Shown one piece after another: positions 1-10,080 of a stretch of DNA of 46,214 nt. The notes under the pieces are model-generated. The model was given only the letters and a program-made list of their open reading frames with translations. It was not told where the DNA came from and did not search any database. The DNA is from Bacillota bacterium (GTDB lineage: Bacteria > Bacillota > SHA-98 > UBA4971). The stretch covers positions 12,618 through 58,831 of the forward strand of contig JBFMGS010000002.1 in the NCBI GenBank assembly GCA_040752635.1, in the 5' to 3' direction. Position 1 is the first letter of the stretch. Each line of letters starts with the position of its first letter. Position numbers and translations under genes: made by a program.

Positions 1-266
1 CGCTTGAATTCGTCAGCTATGCCAAGGGCTAGCGGCGTCTCGGGTCCGACGATCGTGAGGTCCACGTGGTGCTCCAGCGCAAATTGCCCGAGTGCAGGTA
101 TATCGTGGGTAGGAATGGGCACACAGGTGGCGAGCTTGGCGATGCCCGGGTTGCCGGGCGCAGCATACGTCTGCGAGACCCGCGGGCTCGCCGCAACCTT
201 CCAGGTGAGCGCATGCTCACGTCCCCCTTGCCCTACCACGAGCACACGAAGATCGTCTCGTTTCAC
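1..266 (-). CDS. purD: Phosphoribosylamine--glycine ligase, N-terminal part (runs off the window)
   Basis: Manual translation from GTG at 266: MKRDDLRVLVVGQGGREHALTWKV...APGNPGI...DLTIVGPETPLALGIADEF. GGGAGG SD upstream; follows purH. Confidence 0.95.
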   Translation of the reverse strand, partial: MKRDDLRVLVVGQGGREHALTWKVAASPRVSQTYAAPGNPGIAKLATCVPIPTHDIPALGQFALEHHVDLTIVGPETPLALGIADEFK

Positions 267-468
267 TGGCTTCCCTCCCGCAACGAATGGTTCCATGTCA
301 AGCATCCGACGAGAGGCACAAAGGAGCCCCTCAATCTTGCAACGATTGCCGTGTTTGCGTGAGAACGTCCGAAGTCCCCGTCGGCTGCCCGCTGCCCGTA
401 ACGCAGATTTGACCGGGGGTGCGAAGGGTGCACACCCCAGAAAGCCAGGCGGGTCTCCGGCAACCGAC

Positions 469-2073
469 CTAGTGCCTAAAGTGGCGCACACCGGTAAACA
501 CCATCGCTATGCCGTGCTCGTTTGCGGCCTCGATGCATTCCTTGTCGCGAATCGAGCCCCCGGGTTGGATGATCGCGGTTACGCCCATCTTCGCAGCTTC
601 GTCTATGCCATCCCTGAATGGGAAGAACGCGTCGGACGCCATAACCGACCCCCGGGCGTTCTGACCGGCCTGGGCAGCCGCTATCCTGACAGACCCTACG
701 CGGTTCATCTGGCCCGCTCCAACACCAATAGTGGCGTCATCCTTCCAGAGCACGATGGCATTGGATTTCACGTGCTTAACCACACGCATCGCGGACAGGA
801 GCCACTTGCTCTCCTGAGGGCTCGGACGCCTGATGGTAACCACCTGCGCCTTCTCTATAGAGAGGTCCCCTGACTCATCCGCCTGTTGCACCAGGAACCC
901 GCCCTCGACCCAGCGGACATCGATCCTGGGACCTGTCCTGGGCGCATCTCGAGGCACGATCAACACGCGAAGGTTGGGCTTTTCCGCAAGCACACGAAGG
1001 GCCTCGTCGGTGACGTCTTTCGCAAGAACCACCTCCACGAAGGTCTCCGCAATCCTCGCCGCAACTCCTTCAGTAATGACGCCGCCAAGGCCGACCACGC
1101 TCCCGAAAGCAGATACCGGGTCTGCTTCCCGAGCTTTCACATATGCGCGGGCGAGGTCGTCTCCTACTGCGACACCGCACGGGTTCGTATGCTTTATCAC
1201 CACCGCAGCGGGTTCAGTGAACTCGCGCATAATACGTAGCGCCGCGTCCGCGTCAAGTATGTTATTGAAAGACAGCGGTTTCCCCTGAAGCTGGCAAGCA
1301 CCGGCCAGCCCCAGGAACGGCGAATCCTCGAACGCATAAAACGCCGCCCGCTGGTGCGGGTTTTCCCCGTAACGGAGGTCGTGCACTTTCCTGCCCCGAA
1401 CGTAGAAGACCTCTCCGAAGGGGTTACCATCCTTGAGGCCCAAATCATGTGAACCGCCCCGCCCGGTCCCTGTCTCGCAAGCGCACGCCTCCACTTTAGA
1501 GCCAAGAAACTCGGCTATCGCACGGTCATATTCGGCGGTGTGACGGAAAGCCTCGAGAGCAAGCTGCATGCGAGTCTGGGCAGATACTTCACCGCTCGAC
1601 TCGAGCTCGGAGATTACGTCGGGATACCTGCGAGGATCCGTCACAATGGCCACGCGTTCAAAATTCTTGGCAGCCGCGCGCACCATGGTGGGGCCACCTA
1701 TGTCGATGTTCTCGATAGCAACCTCGAGCATGACGTCAGGGTTCGCTACGGTTTCCACGAACGGATAGAGGTTTACCGCCACGATGTCGATTGGCATTAT
1801 GCCGAGCCGTTCGAGATCGCATTCATGCTCGCGGGTGCCGCGCGCAAGTATACCGGCATGTATGGCCGGGTGCAGCGTTTTCACTCTGCCTCCAAGGATC
1901 TCAGGAAACCCGGTCACATCCGATATCCTCGTGACGGGCACGCCTGCCCGCTCCAAGACAGCGGCGGTGCCCCCGGTAGATACAATCTCGTATCCCAGCC
2001 GAGCGAGAGCCTGCGCGAAATCCACTACGCCGCTCTTGTCATAGACGCTGATTATTGCCCTCCGTGTTTTCAT
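469..2073 (-). CDS. purH: Bifunctional AICAR transformylase/IMP cyclohydrolase
   Basis: Motifs ISVYDKSG, STGGTA, GRVKTLHP, ENIDIGGPTMVRAAAKN, LRYGENPHQ, KHTNPCG, SDAFFPF, GVRHFRH. ATG at 2073 with GGAGGT SD. Confidence 0.97.
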   Translation of the reverse strand: MKTRRAIISVYDKSGVVDFAQALARLGYEIVSTGGTAAVLERAGVPVTRISDVTGFPEILGGRVKTLHPAIHAGILARGTREHECDLERLGIMPIDIVAVNLYPFVETVANPDVMLEVAIENIDIGGPTMVRAAAKNFERVAIVTDPRRYPDVISELESSGEVSAQTRMQLALEAFRHTAEYDRAIAEFLGSKVEACACETGTGRGGSHDLGLKDGNPFGEVFYVRGRKVHDLRYGENPHQRAAFYAFEDSPFLGLAGACQLQGKPLSFNNILDADAALRIMREFTEPAAVVIKHTNPCGVAVGDDLARAYVKAREADPVSAFGSVVGLGGVITEGVAARIAETFVEVVLAKDVTDEALRVLAEKPNLRVLIVPRDAPRTGPRIDVRWVEGGFLVQQADESGDLSIEKAQVVTIRRPSPQESKWLLSAMRVVKHVKSNAIVLWKDDATIGVGAGQMNRVGSVRIAAAQAGQNARGSVMASDAFFPFRDGIDEAAKMGVTAIIQPGGSIRDKECIEAANEHGIAMVFTGVRHFRH

Positions 2074-2252
2074 CCAGTGCACCTCCATATGCAAAGTGGA
2101 CGCGCAAAAGCATTCACTGCCTTGCGAAGGGTTACGAACACTCATGTGAGGTAGGAATGGAGATCTGGTGCTTTCACGCCAGCCGGATCTCTCCAGGGCA
2201 TCAGATGGGAGCGCAAACATTGTATCCGACCGCCGGTGCCGTCAGACAAGGC

Positions 2253-2948
2253 TTACGTTTCAATTGTAACCCGCCTGCCATCGCGGTGGACCTTGCCCTC
2301 TGCGATAGCTTTGATGCATTCCACGAGGAGTTCGTGCTCCTGCGTGAGGATCCGAGCCGAGAGGGCATCCACGGTATCATCGGGCAACACAGGCACAACG
2401 CGCTGGCCGATTATGGGGCCTGTGTCCACTCCACCGTCCACGAAGTGCACTGTGCAGCCGCTGTACCTAACTCCGTACTCAAGGGCCTGCCTTTGTGCAT
2501 CAAGACCCCGGAAAGCCGGAAGAAGCGACGGATGTATGTTAATAATCCGATCCCGAAACGCGCTCAGGAAGGTATCGCCCAGGACCCTCATAAACCCCGC
2601 AAGCACCACGAGATCCGGCGCGAACCTGCGAACCGCATCGACCAGGTCTCGCTCGAACTCTGACCGCGAGGCGTAACTATCGCGGGTGACCACCAGGCGG
2701 GGTATGCGGTGACGTGCGGCTCTTTCCAGAGCGGGTGCATCCGGGTTGTCGCACACAAGCCCCGCCACCTTCGCAAGCAGCCTCCCCGTTTCCGCTGCGT
2801 CGATTATGGCCTGGAAGTTCGTCCCCCGACCTGAGGCCAGCACCACGATACTGAACGGGGCGCCATTGGACCGGCCGCGGCCGAATCCGTCACGCGGGCT
2901 TCTACCCGACTCGCCGCGCGGCAAACTACCCGTTAACCTGCCCGCCAA
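2253..2948 (-). CDS. purN: Phosphoribosylglycinamide formyltransferase (start uncertain)
   Basis: [48 protein letters not shown]. Confidence 0.95.
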
Positions 2949-5391
2949 CGAAGCTCACCTCCCCATCGCCAGGGATCACTTCGCCCACGACATAACAACG
3001 CTCGCCCGCCGCCCTGAGGAGTGCCAGGGAGGCATCGATGTCCTCGGGTCTGAGCGCCACGAGGAACCCGATCCCCATATTAAAGGTCCGGCGCATCTCA
3101 TGGTCCTCCACGTTCCCCAGCCTCTGGATGAGGCCGAAGATCGGGGGGACGGGCCAGGATCCAGGGTGGAGCCTGATAGCAAGGCCGGGCGGCAGCATCC
3201 TCGGCGGGTTGTCGATGAGACCTCCCCCCGTGATATGCGCCATGCCCCGAATCCTGACCGCAGCCGCAAGGTCCAGGATGGCCCGCACATAGATCCGCGT
3301 AGGCTCAAGGAGTTCAGTCACCAGGGGGCGACCGAGGCCGTCCGGCTCGTCGTGAAGACCCAGGCCCGCAAGGTCAAACAGGACGTGCCTTGCGAGCGAG
3401 AATCCGTTGCTATGGAGCCCGGAAGACGCAAGCCCCACCAGGACGTCCCCTGGCTGTATCGAGCTTCCGTCTACCAGGCTGCGTCGCTCCACAACCCCTA
3501 CCGCGAACCCTGCCACGTCGTAGTCGCCGACCTGGTAGAACCCGGGCATCTCCGCGGTCTCGCCCCCGAGCAGGACGCACCCTGCTTGCCTGCAGCCTTC
3601 TGCCATCCCCGACACCACGCGCGCCACCTTATCCGGGTCGATCTTTCCTTGGGAGAGGTAGTCCAGAAAAAACACCGGTCTGGCGCCGCATGTAAGTATG
3701 TCGTTCACGCACATGGCTACAGCGTCTATGCCGATGGTGTCGTGTCTATCCGCTTCTATTGCCACGCGGAGCTTGGTCCCAACCCCGTCCGCCCCTGCTA
3801 CAAGAAGCGTTTCGCCACTGCCCGCGGCATCTAGACGGTAAACTCCCCCGAATCCGCCAAGCCCCCCGATGACATGGTGGTTCATCGTAGATTCCACGGC
3901 CTCGCGGATGAGATCAACAGCCTTCATCCCGCGGCCGATGTCCACCCCGGCATCGGCATACGTTGCACTCGACCCAGTCCACCCGGGCTCCGCCTTGAGT
4001 TCGACCGGGACAGGGTAGTCCCCATCGAAGCACGCTAGACAAAACCGCCTGCCCTGTCCCCCGGCACGGTTCATGGCCTCGAGCAAACCTTCCCTGCTGA
4101 GGTAGTGAAGGCTATCGGCCCCGGTCATGGCGAGGACATAATCCTTACCGTCGGACGCAGCCAACCTGTCCCCACGGCGCGAAGTGTCGATCCCGTAGAA
4201 GCACGGATAAGCTATCGGAGGTGATGCCACCATAAAGCCGATTGTTCTCGCCCCGGCCTCGCGCAGCAACCTCACCAATCTTGCGCTGGTGGTACCCCTG
4301 ACGATGGAATCGTCCACAAGCAGCACGCGCTTTCCTTCCACCACTCGCCTTACAGCGTTCAGCTTCAGTCTCACGCCCCGGCTGCGAAGGTCCTGACTGG
4401 GCTGGATGAACGTCCGGCCGAGGTAGCGGTTCTTGACGAGCCCGTATTCGAACGGGATCCCGCTCTCCCTCGAAAAGCCAAGACCCGCGGCAACGCCGGA
4501 TTCCGGAACGGGGACCACAACGTCTGCCTCCACTTTGTGTTCTCTTGCCAGCATACGGCCCATTTCGTACCTGGCCTCGTTTACGTTGATACCCTCAATG
4601 ACACTATCAGGCCGGGCAAAGTAGATGTATTCAAACACGCAGGTCGAGCGTCTCACCGCAACCGGACCTCGAACGGACCGAACTCCACCCTTGTCGATCA
4701 CAACGATCTCGCCCGGGTCGATCTCCCGTAATAGTTCCGCGCCAATAAGATCGAGCGCGCAGGACTCCGACGCAATGGCGTAGCCCCCGGGCAAAGCGCC
4801 GAGGCACAGCGGCCGGAACCCGTAGGGGTCGCGCATTCCGATTAGTCTCGCTTCGGTCATCATTACAACCGAGTACGCACCCTCAAGGTCGATCATACAC
4901 TTGAGGAGCGCATCTTCCAGGTCGTTTTGGGCATACCTTCCGAGAAGACAGCCCAGGATCTCCGTGTCCACGGTAGTCTGAAATACCGAACCTGACACGC
5001 CCAGGGACTTGCGCAGTTCGCCGGCGTTCACCAGGTTTCCGTTGTGAGCAAGGGCGAGATCGCCCCACGGGTAATGGAAAAGAAGAGGTTGAGCATCTGT
5101 GATCCCGGGCGATCCTGCTGTTGAGTAACGTACATGGCCGATGGCTGTGTTCCCCTGAAGCCTGCGGATGACATCAGGGTTGAACACCTCGGACACCAGG
5201 CCCATCGCCTTGTGGAGGCGGATCCCTGCGCCCTCGGACGAGGCGAGCCCCGCGCTTTCCTGGCCCCGGTGCTGAAGCGCATGCAGCCCATAGCAGGCAA
5301 GCTCTGCCGCGTCGTGGTTGCTCGTGCTCACTCCGATGACTCCGCAGTGCTCACGGATTCCAAAAGGTTCTGCTATGATTCCAGGGCCCAT
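2926..5391 (-). CDS. purF-purM: Fused amidophosphoribosyltransferase (PurF) and AIR synthetase (PurM), 821 aa
   Basis: N-half: propeptide then [35 protein letters not shown] and Fe-S cysteines (CVFE, PCFYG, CLAC). C-half: [52 protein letters not shown]. No stop codon between them. Confidence 0.93.
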
Positions 5392-7604
5392 CCTATCGCC
5401 CCCCGATACACTCTCGAGAGATCACCCACTGTCACGTCGACTATCCTCTGCGAACCGGGCCTCGTGGAGACGCCTTCCGCCGGACCTGCGTCAATCACGA
5501 TGCGCGACCCCCCAACCTCGCCGATGATGGAGAAAGCAACGTTCTCTCGGGAGGCCAGCCTTTTCACCTCGGCAAGCGCAGAAGGATGGAAAGAAACGAG
5601 CGCCCGCGCGCCGGATTCGCTGAAGAGATAACGATCCGCGCGCATACCAGAAAGCCTGACCCTGGCCCCAATCCCACCGAGGATACACGCCTCGGACAGC
5701 GCAACAGCGAGGCCTCCCTCGGAGAGATCCAGGCACGATGAAACAAGCCTTCCGGAGATGAGGGAAAGAACCAGGTTGAGCGTGGCTCGCTCCATCTCGA
5801 GGTCAACGGCCGGCACGCGTCCTCCCTCGATTCCATGGACCACAGCCAGGTACTCGCTTGCGCCGATCTCATCCTTCGTGCGGCCGAGAACCGCGATGAC
5901 GTCGCCTGCACGCTTGAAGCCCGGAGTAGCAAGGCAGGTCAGGTCCTCGATGAGGCCCACCATACCCACCACCGGCGTAGGGTGAACAGCCACACTCGAC
6001 GACTCGTTGTAGAAACTTACGTTGCCGCCGGTCACAGGAATCCCGAGAACCCTGCACGCATGTGCCATGCCTTCAACCGCCTTTCGGAACTGCCAGAAGG
6101 CCTCGAGCTTCTCGGGGTTGCCGAAATTCAGGCAATCCGTGACCCCAACCGGTTCTGCACCAACGCAGGCGAGATTCCTTGCGGCTTCGGCCACAGCATG
6201 GGCGGCTCCGGCCCACGGGTCGAGGTAGCAGTACAGTGAATTCGCATCGCACGTCAGGGCCAGCCCCTTGTTGGTTCCCGGGACTCTGACGACCGATGTC
6301 CCTTGCCCTGGCAGCACTACCGTGTTCGTTCCGACCTGGTGGTCGTACTGGCTGTAGACCCACTCTTTGCTGGCGATGCGGGGCGAGGCGAGAATGCGTT
6401 TCAAGGCATCCGTGTAGTCATCGGGCTCGGGCACCTCCGCGAGATTCCGAGCCTGCTCCTGGTGGAAGTATTCAGGCTCGCGCGCCTCGCGAGTATATGA
6501 TGGCGCCATCTCCGTCAGGGCCGCCGCGGGCACCTCGGCTACGATGGCATCGCCGTCCCGAATTCGAAGAACCCCATCCCCAGTAACGCGGCCCACCGTC
6601 GCCGCCTCAAGCCCCCACTTGCCAAATACGCGCTCAACCTCGTGCTCGCTTCCGGCCTTCACAACCACGAGCATCCGCTCTTGAGACTCCGAGAGCATGA
6701 CCTCGTACGGAGTCATCCCCTCTTCACGCCTGGGAACCCTTGCAACGTCGATCTCCATCCCGACGCCGCCTCTCGCTGCCATCTCGCAGGACGAGCAGGT
6801 CAACCCTGCGGCGCCCATGTCCTGGATTCCTATGACGACCTCGCCGAGTCCATATAGCTCGAGACAGGCCTCGAGAAGCAGCTTCTCCATGAACGGGTCC
6901 CCCACCTGGACGGCGGATCGTTTCGCCATCGCTTCGGGAGAAAGCTCCGCCGATGCGAATGTAGCGCCGTGTATGCCGTCCCGCCCGGTGCGGGCGCCGA
7001 CTACCATCACCGGGTTCCCCGGGCCCTCGGCGGCTGCCTTCTTTACAGAGTCTACTCGGGCGATTCCAACGCACATCACGTTCACAAGGGGACTCTCCCG
7101 GAAGCTCTCATGGGTTGCAACCTCGCCTCCGACAGTAGGAATGCCGATGGAGTTCCCGTAACCCGCGATACCTGCAACTACCTGGGTGAAGATTTGCCTT
7201 GAGCGGGCATCCGAAAGGGGGCCGAACCGCAGCGCGTCGAGGAGCGCGATGGGCCGCGCGCCCATCGTGAAAATGTCGCGGATTATGCCGCCAACCCCCG
7301 TGGCCGCCCCTTGGTATGGCTCCACGGCAGAAGGATGGTTGTGGCTCTCTATCTTGAACACCACGGCGAGCCCATCCCCGATGTCCACAACGCCGGCGTT
7401 CTCGCCAGGCCCCTGAATCACGCGACTTCCGGTGGTCGGCAGGAGCCGAAGCACTTGCCTGGAATTCTTGTAGCTGCAATGTTCGGACCACATGACCGCG
7501 AACATTCCGAGCTCGACGAAATTCGGCTCCCGTCCAAGGATCTCAAGGATGCGGCCATATTCCTCAGTGGATAGCCCCATCTCCTGCCACACGTGGCTGC
7601 CCAA
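5373..7604 (-). CDS. purL: FGAM synthase large subunit
   Basis: [59 protein letters not shown] start at 7604 inferred. Confidence 0.96.
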
Positions 7605-8301
7605 GCTCCACACCCCCTGAAAGGAACTGGATGGCCGAGGCAAAGATCCACCTGCCGTCGGTTCCACCAAGCAACGCCTCGCACGCCCTCTCTGGATGAG
7701 GCATCATCCCGAGCACGTTCCCGCGCTCGTTCACGAGCCCTGCGATGGAGTTTCGGGAACCGTTGGGGTTCGCTTCGGGGGTCGGATGGCCGTCCTCGTC
7801 CGCATAGCGAAAGACAACCTGTCCGCGCCGCTCCAGGCGTTCCAGGGTGACGTCGTCCGCGTAGTAATTGCCCCACCCGTGCGCTATCGGCATCCTGAGG
7901 ACCTGCCCGCTGCGGCAGAGCCCGGTAAAAGGCGTGCTTGCGTTCTCAACGCGAAGCAGGACCCTGTCGCATCTGAACCTGGGGACCACGTTCGGGAGCA
8001 TCGCGCCGGGAAGCAGCCCACACTCGAGCAGGATCTGGAAGCCGTTGCAGATCCCCAGGACAAGCCCGCCCGCTTCGGCGTACCTCACCACGTCGCTCAT
8101 AACCGGTGCAAACCTCGCTATCGCGCCTGCGCGCAGGTAATCCCCATAAGAGAACCCGCCCGGAAGGACTATGAGATCGTACCCCTCAAGGCTCTGTTCC
8201 GCATGCCACACATACCTCACTTCTACCCCGAAGGACTTGAGGGCGCGGTAGCAGTCAGCATCGCAGTTGGAGCCCGGGAAGACCACCACCCCGAATCTCA
8301 C
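7564..8301 (-). CDS. purQ: FGAM synthase glutaminase subunit
   Basis: [39 protein letters not shown]. Confidence 0.97.
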
Positions 8302-8564
8302 CGTGCGTCACCTCCCACTGCCTGCACTTCGAGAGAGAAGTTCTCGATGACAGGGTTGGCCAGCAGCTTGTCGGCGATCTCCTGGGCCTCACGCCCTGCG
8401 GACTCGGCGTCATCCGCCGACAGCATCAGCTCGATGTGTTTGCCTATCCGCACGTCGAGGACATTACGGTAGCTCATCGAGTGAAGCGCCTTTTTTACGG
8501 CGGAGCCCTGTGGGTCAAGTATGGATTCCTTCAAGGTCACCTTGATTTCTGCCTTGTATTGCAC
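8298..8564 (-). CDS. purS: FGAM synthase PurS subunit
   Basis: [22 protein letters not shown] at 8564 after GGGAGG. Confidence 0.95.
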
Positions 8565-8653
8565 GGCTCGCCCCCCTCCCATCCCGATGTTGCGCGGAGG
8601 CCGACTCGTCCACTGGGAATTCGCGCTGCATCTGAGCGTATGGAATCCACGGC

Positions 8654-8791: not shown

Positions 8792-9535
8792 CTATACTGC
8801 GCTCCCCCTGCTGGAAACTGCACTGCTCTTGCCGGTGACACGTTTCAGAACCTCCACATACGCCTCTTCCACACCACCCATGTCGCGCCTGAACCTATCC
8901 TTGTCAAGCCGCTCCCCCGTGGCAGCGTCCCAGAGCCTGCAGGTGTCGGGTGAGATCTCGTCTCCGAGCACAAGCTCTCCATCGCACCAGCCGAATTCGA
9001 GCTTGAAGTCAACCAGAGTCAGCCCTATCGCGCCAAAAAACGGCTCGATCTCCCGGTCTACCGCAAGGGCCGCCTCCCGAAGCTCAGTGACAAGCTGACG
9101 CGTGGCAATTCCGAGCGCAACAACGTGGTCCTCGGTAACCAGTGGATCCCCCAGCTCATCGCTCTTGAAGTAAAACTCTACGATCGGGAACGCCGGTTTC
9201 GTGCCTTCGGAGATCCCGAGTCTCCTCGCAAGGCTCCCGGCCACCAGGTTTCTCACCACGACTTCAAGGGGGACCATCTTGAGACCCCGCACAACCATCC
9301 TGTTCTCGCCATCAAGCCTCTCGAAATGTGTTCGCAGGCACCGCGAATTGAGATGCGAGAAGAGCACAGCAGATACCTGGCAATTCACGGCGCCTTTCCC
9401 CTGGATCACTCCCTTCTTTCGGCCGTCCTGGGCCGTTGCATCGTCCTTGAACTCGATCAGGTAGTACCTGGTGTCTTCCATGGAATAGACCCTCTTCGCC
9501 TTTCCTTCATAAACCAGTCGTCCGCGATCTATCAT
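8792..9535 (-). CDS. purC: SAICAR synthetase
   Basis: YEGKAK, FKDDATA, PLEVVVRN, LVDFKLEFG, DEISPDTCRLWD, DKDRFR. Confidence 0.97.
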   Translation of the reverse strand: MIDRGRLVYEGKAKRVYSMEDTRYYLIEFKDDATAQDGRKKGVIQGKGAVNCQVSAVLFSHLNSRCLRTHFERLDGENRMVVRGLKMVPLEVVVRNLVAGSLARRLGISEGTKPAFPIVEFYFKSDELGDPLVTEDHVVALGIATRQLVTELREAALAVDREIEPFFGAIGLTLVDFKLEFGWCDGELVLGDEISPDTCRLWDAATGERLDKDRFRRDMGGVEEAYVEVLKRVTGKSSAVSSRGSAV

Positions 9536-10080
9536 GCCTGCACACTCCCCTCTTCCCTGTCTTGACCAAGTGCTACCATCACACGCCTGTGTTTTGCTTC
9601 AACTTCCTGCGCGAGGTGGTCCCGGTACTCGGTGAGCTTCTGGGTGAGAGCTGGATAGGAAATCGCAAGAATGGCGATAGCAAGGAGCGCAGCGTTCTTT
9701 GACGCGTTCACGCCGACGCACGCCACCGGCACCCCGGGCGGCATCTGGACGGTCGAGTACAGCGCGTCTATCCCTGAAAGCGCAGAACCGCCGCAGGGCA
9801 CCCCGATCACCGGAAGCACCGTTGCGGCGGCTAAGACTCCGGCAAGGTGCGCTGCTCCCCCAGCGGCCGCGATGATCACCCGGACCCCTCGACCTGCAGC
9901 GCCTCTCGCATATGAGATCGTGCGCTCGAGAGAGCGGTGCACAGACCCAACCACAACTTCGCAATCCACCCCGAAGCGTTCCAGCGTCTCGACGCATTCA
10001 CGCATAACCCCGAGGTCCGAGTCACTCCCCATCACGACCATGACCTTTGGCTGGTCACCTGACGCGCCTTCCAGGTCCAC
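9532..10080 (-). CDS. purE: N5-CAIR mutase / AIR carboxylase
   Basis: MGSDSD, AGGAAHLAGV, PVIGVP, STVQMPPGVPVA, NAALLA. Confidence 0.95.
   Translation of the reverse strand: MDLEGASGDQPKVMVVMGSDSDLGVMRECVETLERFGVDCEVVVGSVHRSLERTISYARGAAGRGVRVIIAAAGGAAHLAGVLAAATVLPVIGVPCGGSALSGIDALYSTVQMPPGVPVACVGVNASKNAALLAIAILAISYPALTQKLTEYRDHLAQEVEAKHRRVMVALGQDREEGSVQA

Follow-up and report, generated by a model that had tools for sequence, protein, structure and literature searches.

A PurF-PurM fusion joining two non-consecutive steps of purine synthesis is inherited in two related lineages of Bacillota

In de novo purine synthesis PurF catalyzes step 1 and PurM step 5, so that the two enzymes are not consecutive in the pathway. 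A 46,214-nucleotide stretch of contig JBFMGS010000002.1 (positions 12,618 to 58,831) from the Bacillota assembly GCA_040752635.1, referred to at its full length as the window, contains a single open reading frame in which a PurF runs into a PurM, and this locus raises the question of whether the two enzymes are truly one protein, how they came to be joined, and what their union does. The fusion is genuine, and it is best read, with a probability of roughly three in four, as a bifunctional PurF-PurM enzyme that arose through loss of a stop codon in a Bacillus-type operon, carries its halves on a flexible tether, and has since been inherited.

No internal stop interrupts any part of the 821-residue translation (P0001). 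As a first-pass annotation of the DNA had claimed, a complete PurF continues in frame into a complete PurM, thereby joining steps 1 and 5 with both modules whole. Both halves exceed the cut-offs of equivalog models, namely NCBIfam TIGR01134 (purF; residues 16-460, model positions 1-432 of 432, 513.6 bits against a cut-off of 350) and TIGR00878 (purM; residues 477-806, model positions 2-330 of 332, 423.1 bits against a cut-off of 236.35), and the Pfam domains follow the order GATase_6/7, Pribosyltran (288-388), AIRS (PF00586), and AIRS_C (PF02769). The best solved-structure match of the first half is Bacillus subtilis PurF (residues 16-463 against 1GPH and 1AO0, E 2e-148), and that of the second is Geobacillus kaustophilus PurM (residues 476-817 against residues 5-345 of 2Z01, E 1.7e-117).

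The PurF half resembles the B. subtilis enzyme in its propeptide, its N-terminal cysteine nucleophile, its phosphoribosyl pyrophosphate (PRPP) loop (DDSIVRGTT), and four aligned cysteines, and departs from it at the chain end, where the B. subtilis residues past position 449 of 465 have no counterpart and the fused chain instead continues into PurM. The first 15 residues form the predicted propeptide, since the mature B. subtilis chain starts with a cysteine that aligns with Cys16; the propeptide of the B. subtilis protein is 11 residues long. Cys251, Cys397, Cys451, and Cys454 align with B. subtilis Cys236, Cys382, Cys437, and Cys440, which we take to be the ligands of the [4Fe-4S] cluster, and the propeptide, catalytic cysteine, and four Fe-S cysteines that had been noted at first sight all find their place in this alignment. 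Across 51 fused proteins, residues D360, D361, S362, V364, R365, G366, and T368 of the PRPP loop are invariant, as are Y478, G482, and V483 (the Y..AGVD motif) and D535-L541 (DGVGTKL) of PurM. Residues 476-817 align with stand-alone PurM proteins (2Z01; Bacillus anthracis 2BTU; Escherichia coli 1CLI) and retain both AIRS domains, the difference being that the N-terminus of the fused PurM is not free and that about four of the normal N-terminal residues are missing before the linker. According to PMC8449271 the PurM dimer forms through the N-terminal domain, with the active sites at this interface, and this places the fusion point on the dimer-interface domain. Because these halves are the only purF and purM matches above cut-off in the genome (the assembly being 87% complete) and keep the family-defining residues, each is predicted to be very likely catalytically active.

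A fusion of this kind could be produced by an assembly or sequencing error, in which a missed stop or a frameshift joins two ordinary genes, and the source is indeed a fragmented, metagenome-assembled genome in 196 contigs. This explanation is refuted in practice by independent data. Public sequencing runs of other studies supplied contigs that were aligned to window positions 3700-4300 (601 bases): a piece from run X3 spans 3925-4300 with no differences, a piece from runs X5 and X7, which appear to be one data set filed twice, spans 3809-4028 with one substitution, and a 7646-base contig from run X6 covers all of 3700-4300 as a variant with 32 substitutions and no gaps. No insertion or deletion is listed at 3700-4300 in any aligned run (X3, X5/X7, X6), and the search for an indel or stop at the junction, suggested in the first-pass annotation, thus returned contigs that cross it gap-free. 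Moreover, a second entry in the protein collection, P0002, is 95% identical to P0001 and likewise 821 residues long, and the family provides 16 further species genomes, and a second class 18, in which the same fusion occurs with different linkers. The stretch at 3700-4300 or near variants of it were found in groundwater and subsurface metagenome runs of several studies, which points to a subsurface habitat; among the listed public runs holding the stretch, none is an RNA run.

The window's class comprises 22 species genomes, of which 18, including the window's own, belong to family f1 and four to the sister families f2 and f3. The fusion lies in one open frame in 17 of the 18 f1 genomes, so that the relatives, which the first-pass annotation had proposed to check, do not all have split genes. 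In one of the 17 (G010) the contig ends inside PurM with the junction fused, and in the remaining f1 genome (G008, 94% complete) purF, purM, and purL are all without a match. All four f2 and f3 genomes hold purF and purM as adjacent, split genes in different frames. Beyond the class, an even sample of 401 genomes of the phylum was surveyed for a match over both halves in one frame (E<=1e-200). Such a match was found in 75 genomes: 10 from f1, 11 from families f42, f68, f90, and f111, and 54 in which one or more stop codons stand between purF and purM. The fused state is therefore present in 21 of the 401, and the architecture, whose commonness had been raised as a check, is rare overall. Open reading frame analysis of 30 of the 54 in-frame genomes, all from other families (loci L111-L131 and L142-L151), found every one split: a single stop separates the genes in 27, and in the other three a short stretch of codons that includes two or more stops does so; the other 24 were counted by match alone, and a few of them could be fused with a stop at the alignment edge, as in G005 and G180. 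In many lineages, then, a single point mutation would fuse the genes, and yet fusion has rarely become fixed.

Families f42, f68, f90, and f111 make up one whole neighbouring class of 21 species genomes, 18 of which carry the fusion. The three that lack it are 75-84% complete, and in two of them purL lies at a contig end. One f68 genome (G321, 84% complete) has no purF, purM, or purL match, and for this genome and G008 either the contig with the operon is absent from the bins or de novo purine synthesis has been lost. Among 80 loci of named genomes, 54 held both genes and two of these were fused, one being a member of f1; the fusion occurred in none of the cultured genera returned with these loci (Veillonella, Sporomusa, Clostridium, Faecalibacterium, and others). 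At least 51 full-length fused clusters, of 795-916 residues, stand among the best 120 protein-collection matches to the junction region, and none of the 51 has UniRef as its source. Where the source gives a name to these clusters, it is mostly 'amidophosphoribosyltransferase', and because pipelines name fused proteins in this way only, metabolic reconstructions may wrongly score purM as missing. The fusion is thus ancient, inherited, and lineage-wide in two related lineages.

The linker bears directly on how the fusion arose. In the survey its length was counted from the end of the PurF alignment to the start of the PurM alignment in BLAST, and by this measure linkers of 0-59 residues occur across the fused proteins, rich in Ala, Gly, Ser, Pro, and Glu and with no motif shared among those compared. 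The linkers of 16 f1 genomes measure 11-59 residues (median 28.5), the window's being the shortest, and those of the second class 14-31 residues (median 18; 12 loci from 11 genomes, one genome being counted twice, as L110 and L133). For the 30 split relatives with both genes in frame, read-through of the stop codon or codons would produce a linker of 11-33 residues (median 24.5), and this match between observed linkers and translated in-frame spacers fits a simple origin in which purF lost its stop codon. An ancestor with purF and purM adjacent in the same reading frame of a Bacillus-type operon would have lost the stop codon of purF, the translated intergenic spacer would have become the linker, and the fused gene would then have been inherited in f1 and in the neighbouring class. 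In genus g3 (L021, L022, and L023, from G016, G012, and G014) the linkers reach 50-59 residues and consist of short acidic Pro/Glu/Asn/Ser repeats (PEN- and PEK-like), whose units differ between species and suggest rapid expansion of the linker by slippage.

The same region bears on whether the two enzymes remain joined, since the linker of the fused chain might be cleaved post-translationally, or PurM might also be made from an internal start, yielding separate PurF and PurM. In favour of this, PurF of this type already undergoes propeptide processing, and AlphaFold2 predicts the linker to be disordered and exposed. However, the linkers share no conserved cleavage motif, and a codon-by-codon check of the junction found neither a stop nor an in-frame ATG, GTG, or TTG at codons 455-482, as had been stated for a linker put at about 3960-4017, a placement correct to within a few codons of the unaligned spacer; the linker sequence quoted in the first-pass annotation also occurs in the translation. 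The first in-frame start codons past the junction are a GTG at V483, within the invariant AGVD motif, and an ATG at M489; both fall within the conserved PurM N-terminus, and initiation at either would delete the invariant Y478/G482/V483/G488 motif. Separate products therefore seem very unlikely.

How often the genes were joined was addressed with gene trees and a species marker. A FastTree phylogeny of 119 concatenated PurF+PurM rows requires four state changes, three of them forced by well-supported branches, and holds one clade of 52 fused rows, made up of f1 and the second class, together with three small fused groups nested among split genes. An IQ-TREE 'quick' analysis of 56 species-genome rows, in which 8 genomes stood for the 17 of f1 and L112, a duplicate of L018, was excluded, places all 20 fused genes in one clade (support of 99 in the Shimodaira-Hasegawa-like approximate likelihood ratio test, SH-aLRT), away from f2 and f3. 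An approximately unbiased (AU) test did not reject f1, f2, and f3 as one clade (log-likelihood difference 3.1, p 0.46). In an RpoB tree of 30 genomes, f1, f2, and f3 group together (support 95), as does the second class (98), and a branch with support 100 divides both groups together from 11 other families; the two fusion-bearing lineages are therefore neighbours, and on this tree the fused state needs two changes. Horizontal transfer of the fused gene into f1 was suggested by the gene tree and was dropped as a claim because of the AU result and because the RpoB tree sets the two classes together; common descent followed by one loss explains the pattern equally well. RpoB frames measure 1227-1320 residues in f1, f2, f3, and the second class and 1114-1178 residues in 10 of the 11 other families, the exception being G063 (1236 residues), with the window's genome represented by L172 among the rpoB loci L152-L181. 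The extra length falls within the part matched to model positions of about 288-892 and may be a shared insertion that marks the two classes as relatives.

An AlphaFold2 model built on the naturally paired alignment has a mean predicted local distance difference test score (pLDDT) of 85; the score falls below 50 at residues 1-14 and 465-476, and the predicted template-modelling score (pTM) of the whole chain is 0.56. High pLDDT together with this pTM suggests two well-folded halves that have no confident mutual placement. The halves would thus act as independent catalytic modules on a flexible, disordered tether, and the immediate effect of the fusion would be the obligatory 1:1 co-synthesis and co-localisation of PurF and PurM. 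Since other reactions separate step 1 from step 5, direct channelling between them is unlikely. A complex prediction of PurF residues 1-465 with PurM residues 474-821 (a 51-row alignment for each), run without controls, scored 0.00 in both runs (mark 0.32) and speaks neither for nor against contact between the halves. The PurF entries 1GPH and 1AO0 were deposited with four chains, and AIR (aminoimidazole ribonucleotide) synthetase is, according to PMC8449271, dimeric, and its active sites lie where the two subunits meet; a tether of 13 residues must therefore constrain how the two oligomers combine.

Three points weigh against stop-codon loss followed by inheritance of a freely tethered enzyme. 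The unaligned linker of the window's protein, at 13 residues the shortest in f1, is short for a fully free connection of a PurF oligomer to a PurM dimer. The number of origins may be one or two, as the single clade of the gene tree, the AU test, and the two changes on the RpoB tree leave both possible, and the conceivable histories comprise a single ancient fusion that was later replaced or split in f2 and f3, two fusions in parallel, and transfer. Finally, persistence over about 45-50% divergence and near-fixation in two lineages could equally reflect selection. On this last point, a fused gene does not easily separate again, since a stop, a start, and a ribosome-binding site would all have to be gained together, and long persistence alone is therefore no proof of advantage.

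The first-pass annotation had suggested that the fusion could scaffold a purinosome-like assembly or tie PurM to the oxygen-triggered turnover of PurF; the measurements made here support neither idea and favour a plainer origin and a loose tether. Selection is central to this proposal in the form that the fusion is kept as an adaptive scaffold, either since PurF tetramers cross-linked by PurM dimers recruit PurD, PurL, and others, or since the abundance of PurM becomes coupled to the Fe-S-dependent turnover of PurF. The proposal fits the near-fixed state of the fusion despite that divergence, with no reversion seen within either lineage, and the oligomeric nature of both partners in structures, where a short tether constrains the quaternary arrangement. 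It is harder to reconcile with a linker that is hypervariable in both length and sequence, with the missing mutual placement of the halves in the AlphaFold2 model, with the joining of steps that are not consecutive, and with how seldom the fusion occurs beyond the two lineages, given that the genes are in frame in 54 sampled genomes, 27 of the 30 checked being one stop change away. A scaffold kept by selection is accordingly considered unlikely, and the bifunctional enzyme on a flexible tether, derived by stop-codon loss, is preferred. A wider and rather improbable possibility is that the protein builds an extended, lattice-like assembly, the core of a purine metabolon joining steps 1 and 5, whose abundance would be set by the O2-sensitive Fe-S cluster of PurF; with a four-chain PurF, an obligate PurM dimer, and a tether of about 13 residues in this genus, the protein may be unable to close into a small particle. 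If true, this would represent a purinosome-like organisation achieved by covalent fusion in anaerobic subsurface Bacillota.

GART, PAICS, PurH, and the large PurL are textbook multifunctional purine enzymes, and to these PurF-PurM adds a bacterial case in which the committed, feedback-regulated, Fe-S first enzyme of the pathway is joined to a dimeric mid-pathway enzyme. The closest parallels are the eukaryotic GARs-AIRs proteins (fungal Ade5,7) and GART (PurD-PurM-PurN), which likewise carry a non-consecutive purine enzyme at the N-terminus of PurM in one polypeptide, and in GARs-AIRs it is PurM that supplies dimerisation (both as set out in PMC8449271). The partner there is PurD (step 2), with E. 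coli GARs being a monomer, whereas here it is PurF, an Fe-S, propeptide-processed enzyme with four chains per entry, and PurF-PurM is bacterial and of independent origin. A Pfam scan found no PurD/GARS domain in P0001, and GART proteins match only the PurM half, over 52-75% of the queried region, for which reasons PurF-PurM is not a member of the GART/Ade5,7 group. The first-pass annotation was aware of no characterised PurF-PurM fusion, and no described PurF-PurM protein was found in the literature searched, the coverage of which excludes subscription journals; nor does a fusion of PurF with PurM stand among those given in the passages on fusions of an archaeal purine review (PMC3261824), which lists others. 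The terms 'purFM' and 'purF-purM' do occur in the literature, for example in reviews of B. subtilis riboflavin production, and appear to be operon notation rather than the name of a protein fusion. The PurF-PurM fusion therefore seems to be undescribed. It also offers a natural experiment, in which two related lineages are fused while dozens of other families keep the genes in one frame, a single stop apart in 27 of the 30 checked, and through which it can be tested directly whether joining non-consecutive steps is costly or beneficial.

The fused gene lies in a minus-strand Bacillus-type pur operon of the order purE-C-S-Q-L-(F-M)-N-H-D (Table 1). Since purF and purM are neighbours in this tightly packed operon, the fusion joins adjacent genes and not consecutive reactions. 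The longest open reading frame of purL overlaps the start of the fused gene by 19 nucleotides, and that of purN overlaps its end by 23, these being overlaps of longest frames whose true starts may differ.

Table 1. Positions within the window of the fused gene, its parts, and the surrounding pur genes.
Feature	Position	Strand	Evidence or remark
purF-purM fused open reading frame (P0001)	2926..5391	-	821 residues plus stop; ATG start; single open frame
Predicted PurF propeptide, residues 1-15	5347..5391	-	mature B. subtilis chain starts at Cys16; pLDDT <50 for residues 1-14
Cys16, N-terminal nucleophile of glutaminase domain	5344..5346	-	1GPH/1AO0 alignment; >=90% conserved in 51 fused proteins
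PurF module, residues 16-463 (N-terminal nucleophile (Ntn) glutaminase and phosphoribosyltransferase (PRTase) domains)	4003..5346	-	TIGR01134; 1GPH residues 1-449
Cys251 (B. subtilis Cys236 by alignment)	4639..4641	-	invariant in 51 fused proteins (alignment A1)
Cys397 (B. subtilis Cys382 by alignment)	4201..4203	-	invariant in A1
Cys451 and Cys454 (CLAC; B. subtilis Cys437 and Cys440 by alignment)	4030..4041	-	both invariant in A1
Linker, residues 464-476, 13 unaligned residues	3964..4002	-	codons, pLDDT, non-conservation among relatives
PurM module, residues 477-821 (AIRS and AIRS_C)	2929..3963	-	TIGR00878; 2Z01 residues 5-345
purE	9532-10080	-	operon profile matches
purC	8792-9535	-	operon profile matches
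purS	8298-8582	-	operon profile matches
purQ	7564-8301	-	operon profile matches
purL, directly upstream	5373..7670	-	NF002290, 1007 bits
purN, directly downstream	2253..2948	-	TIGR00639, 248 bits, match from residue 33 of the frame
purH	469..2220	-	operon profile match
purD, 5' part only, runs off the window	3..491	-	TIGR00877, model positions 1-85

Within the operon, purC follows directly after purE (window 8792-10080) with neither purK nor purB between them, and it is at this point that the order differs from that of the B. subtilis pur operon, in which purK and purB intervene. A scan of the whole window with Rfam at gathering thresholds gave no matches, and hence no purine riboswitch was detected.

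Two database labels met in the comparisons deserve mention. The fused protein P0009 has the same linker as the f1 genome G013 (L012) and carries the source label 'Betaproteobacteria bacterium', which probably reflects a mislabelled bin. Likewise, locus L094 is filed as 'Bacteroides faecis ... cleanbin', and its purF and purM group with those of Ruminococcus sp. CAG:488 and an uncultured Eubacteriales contig (support 91), within a Clostridia clade of support 100 and on an end branch of 0.058, which makes contamination of the bin likely.

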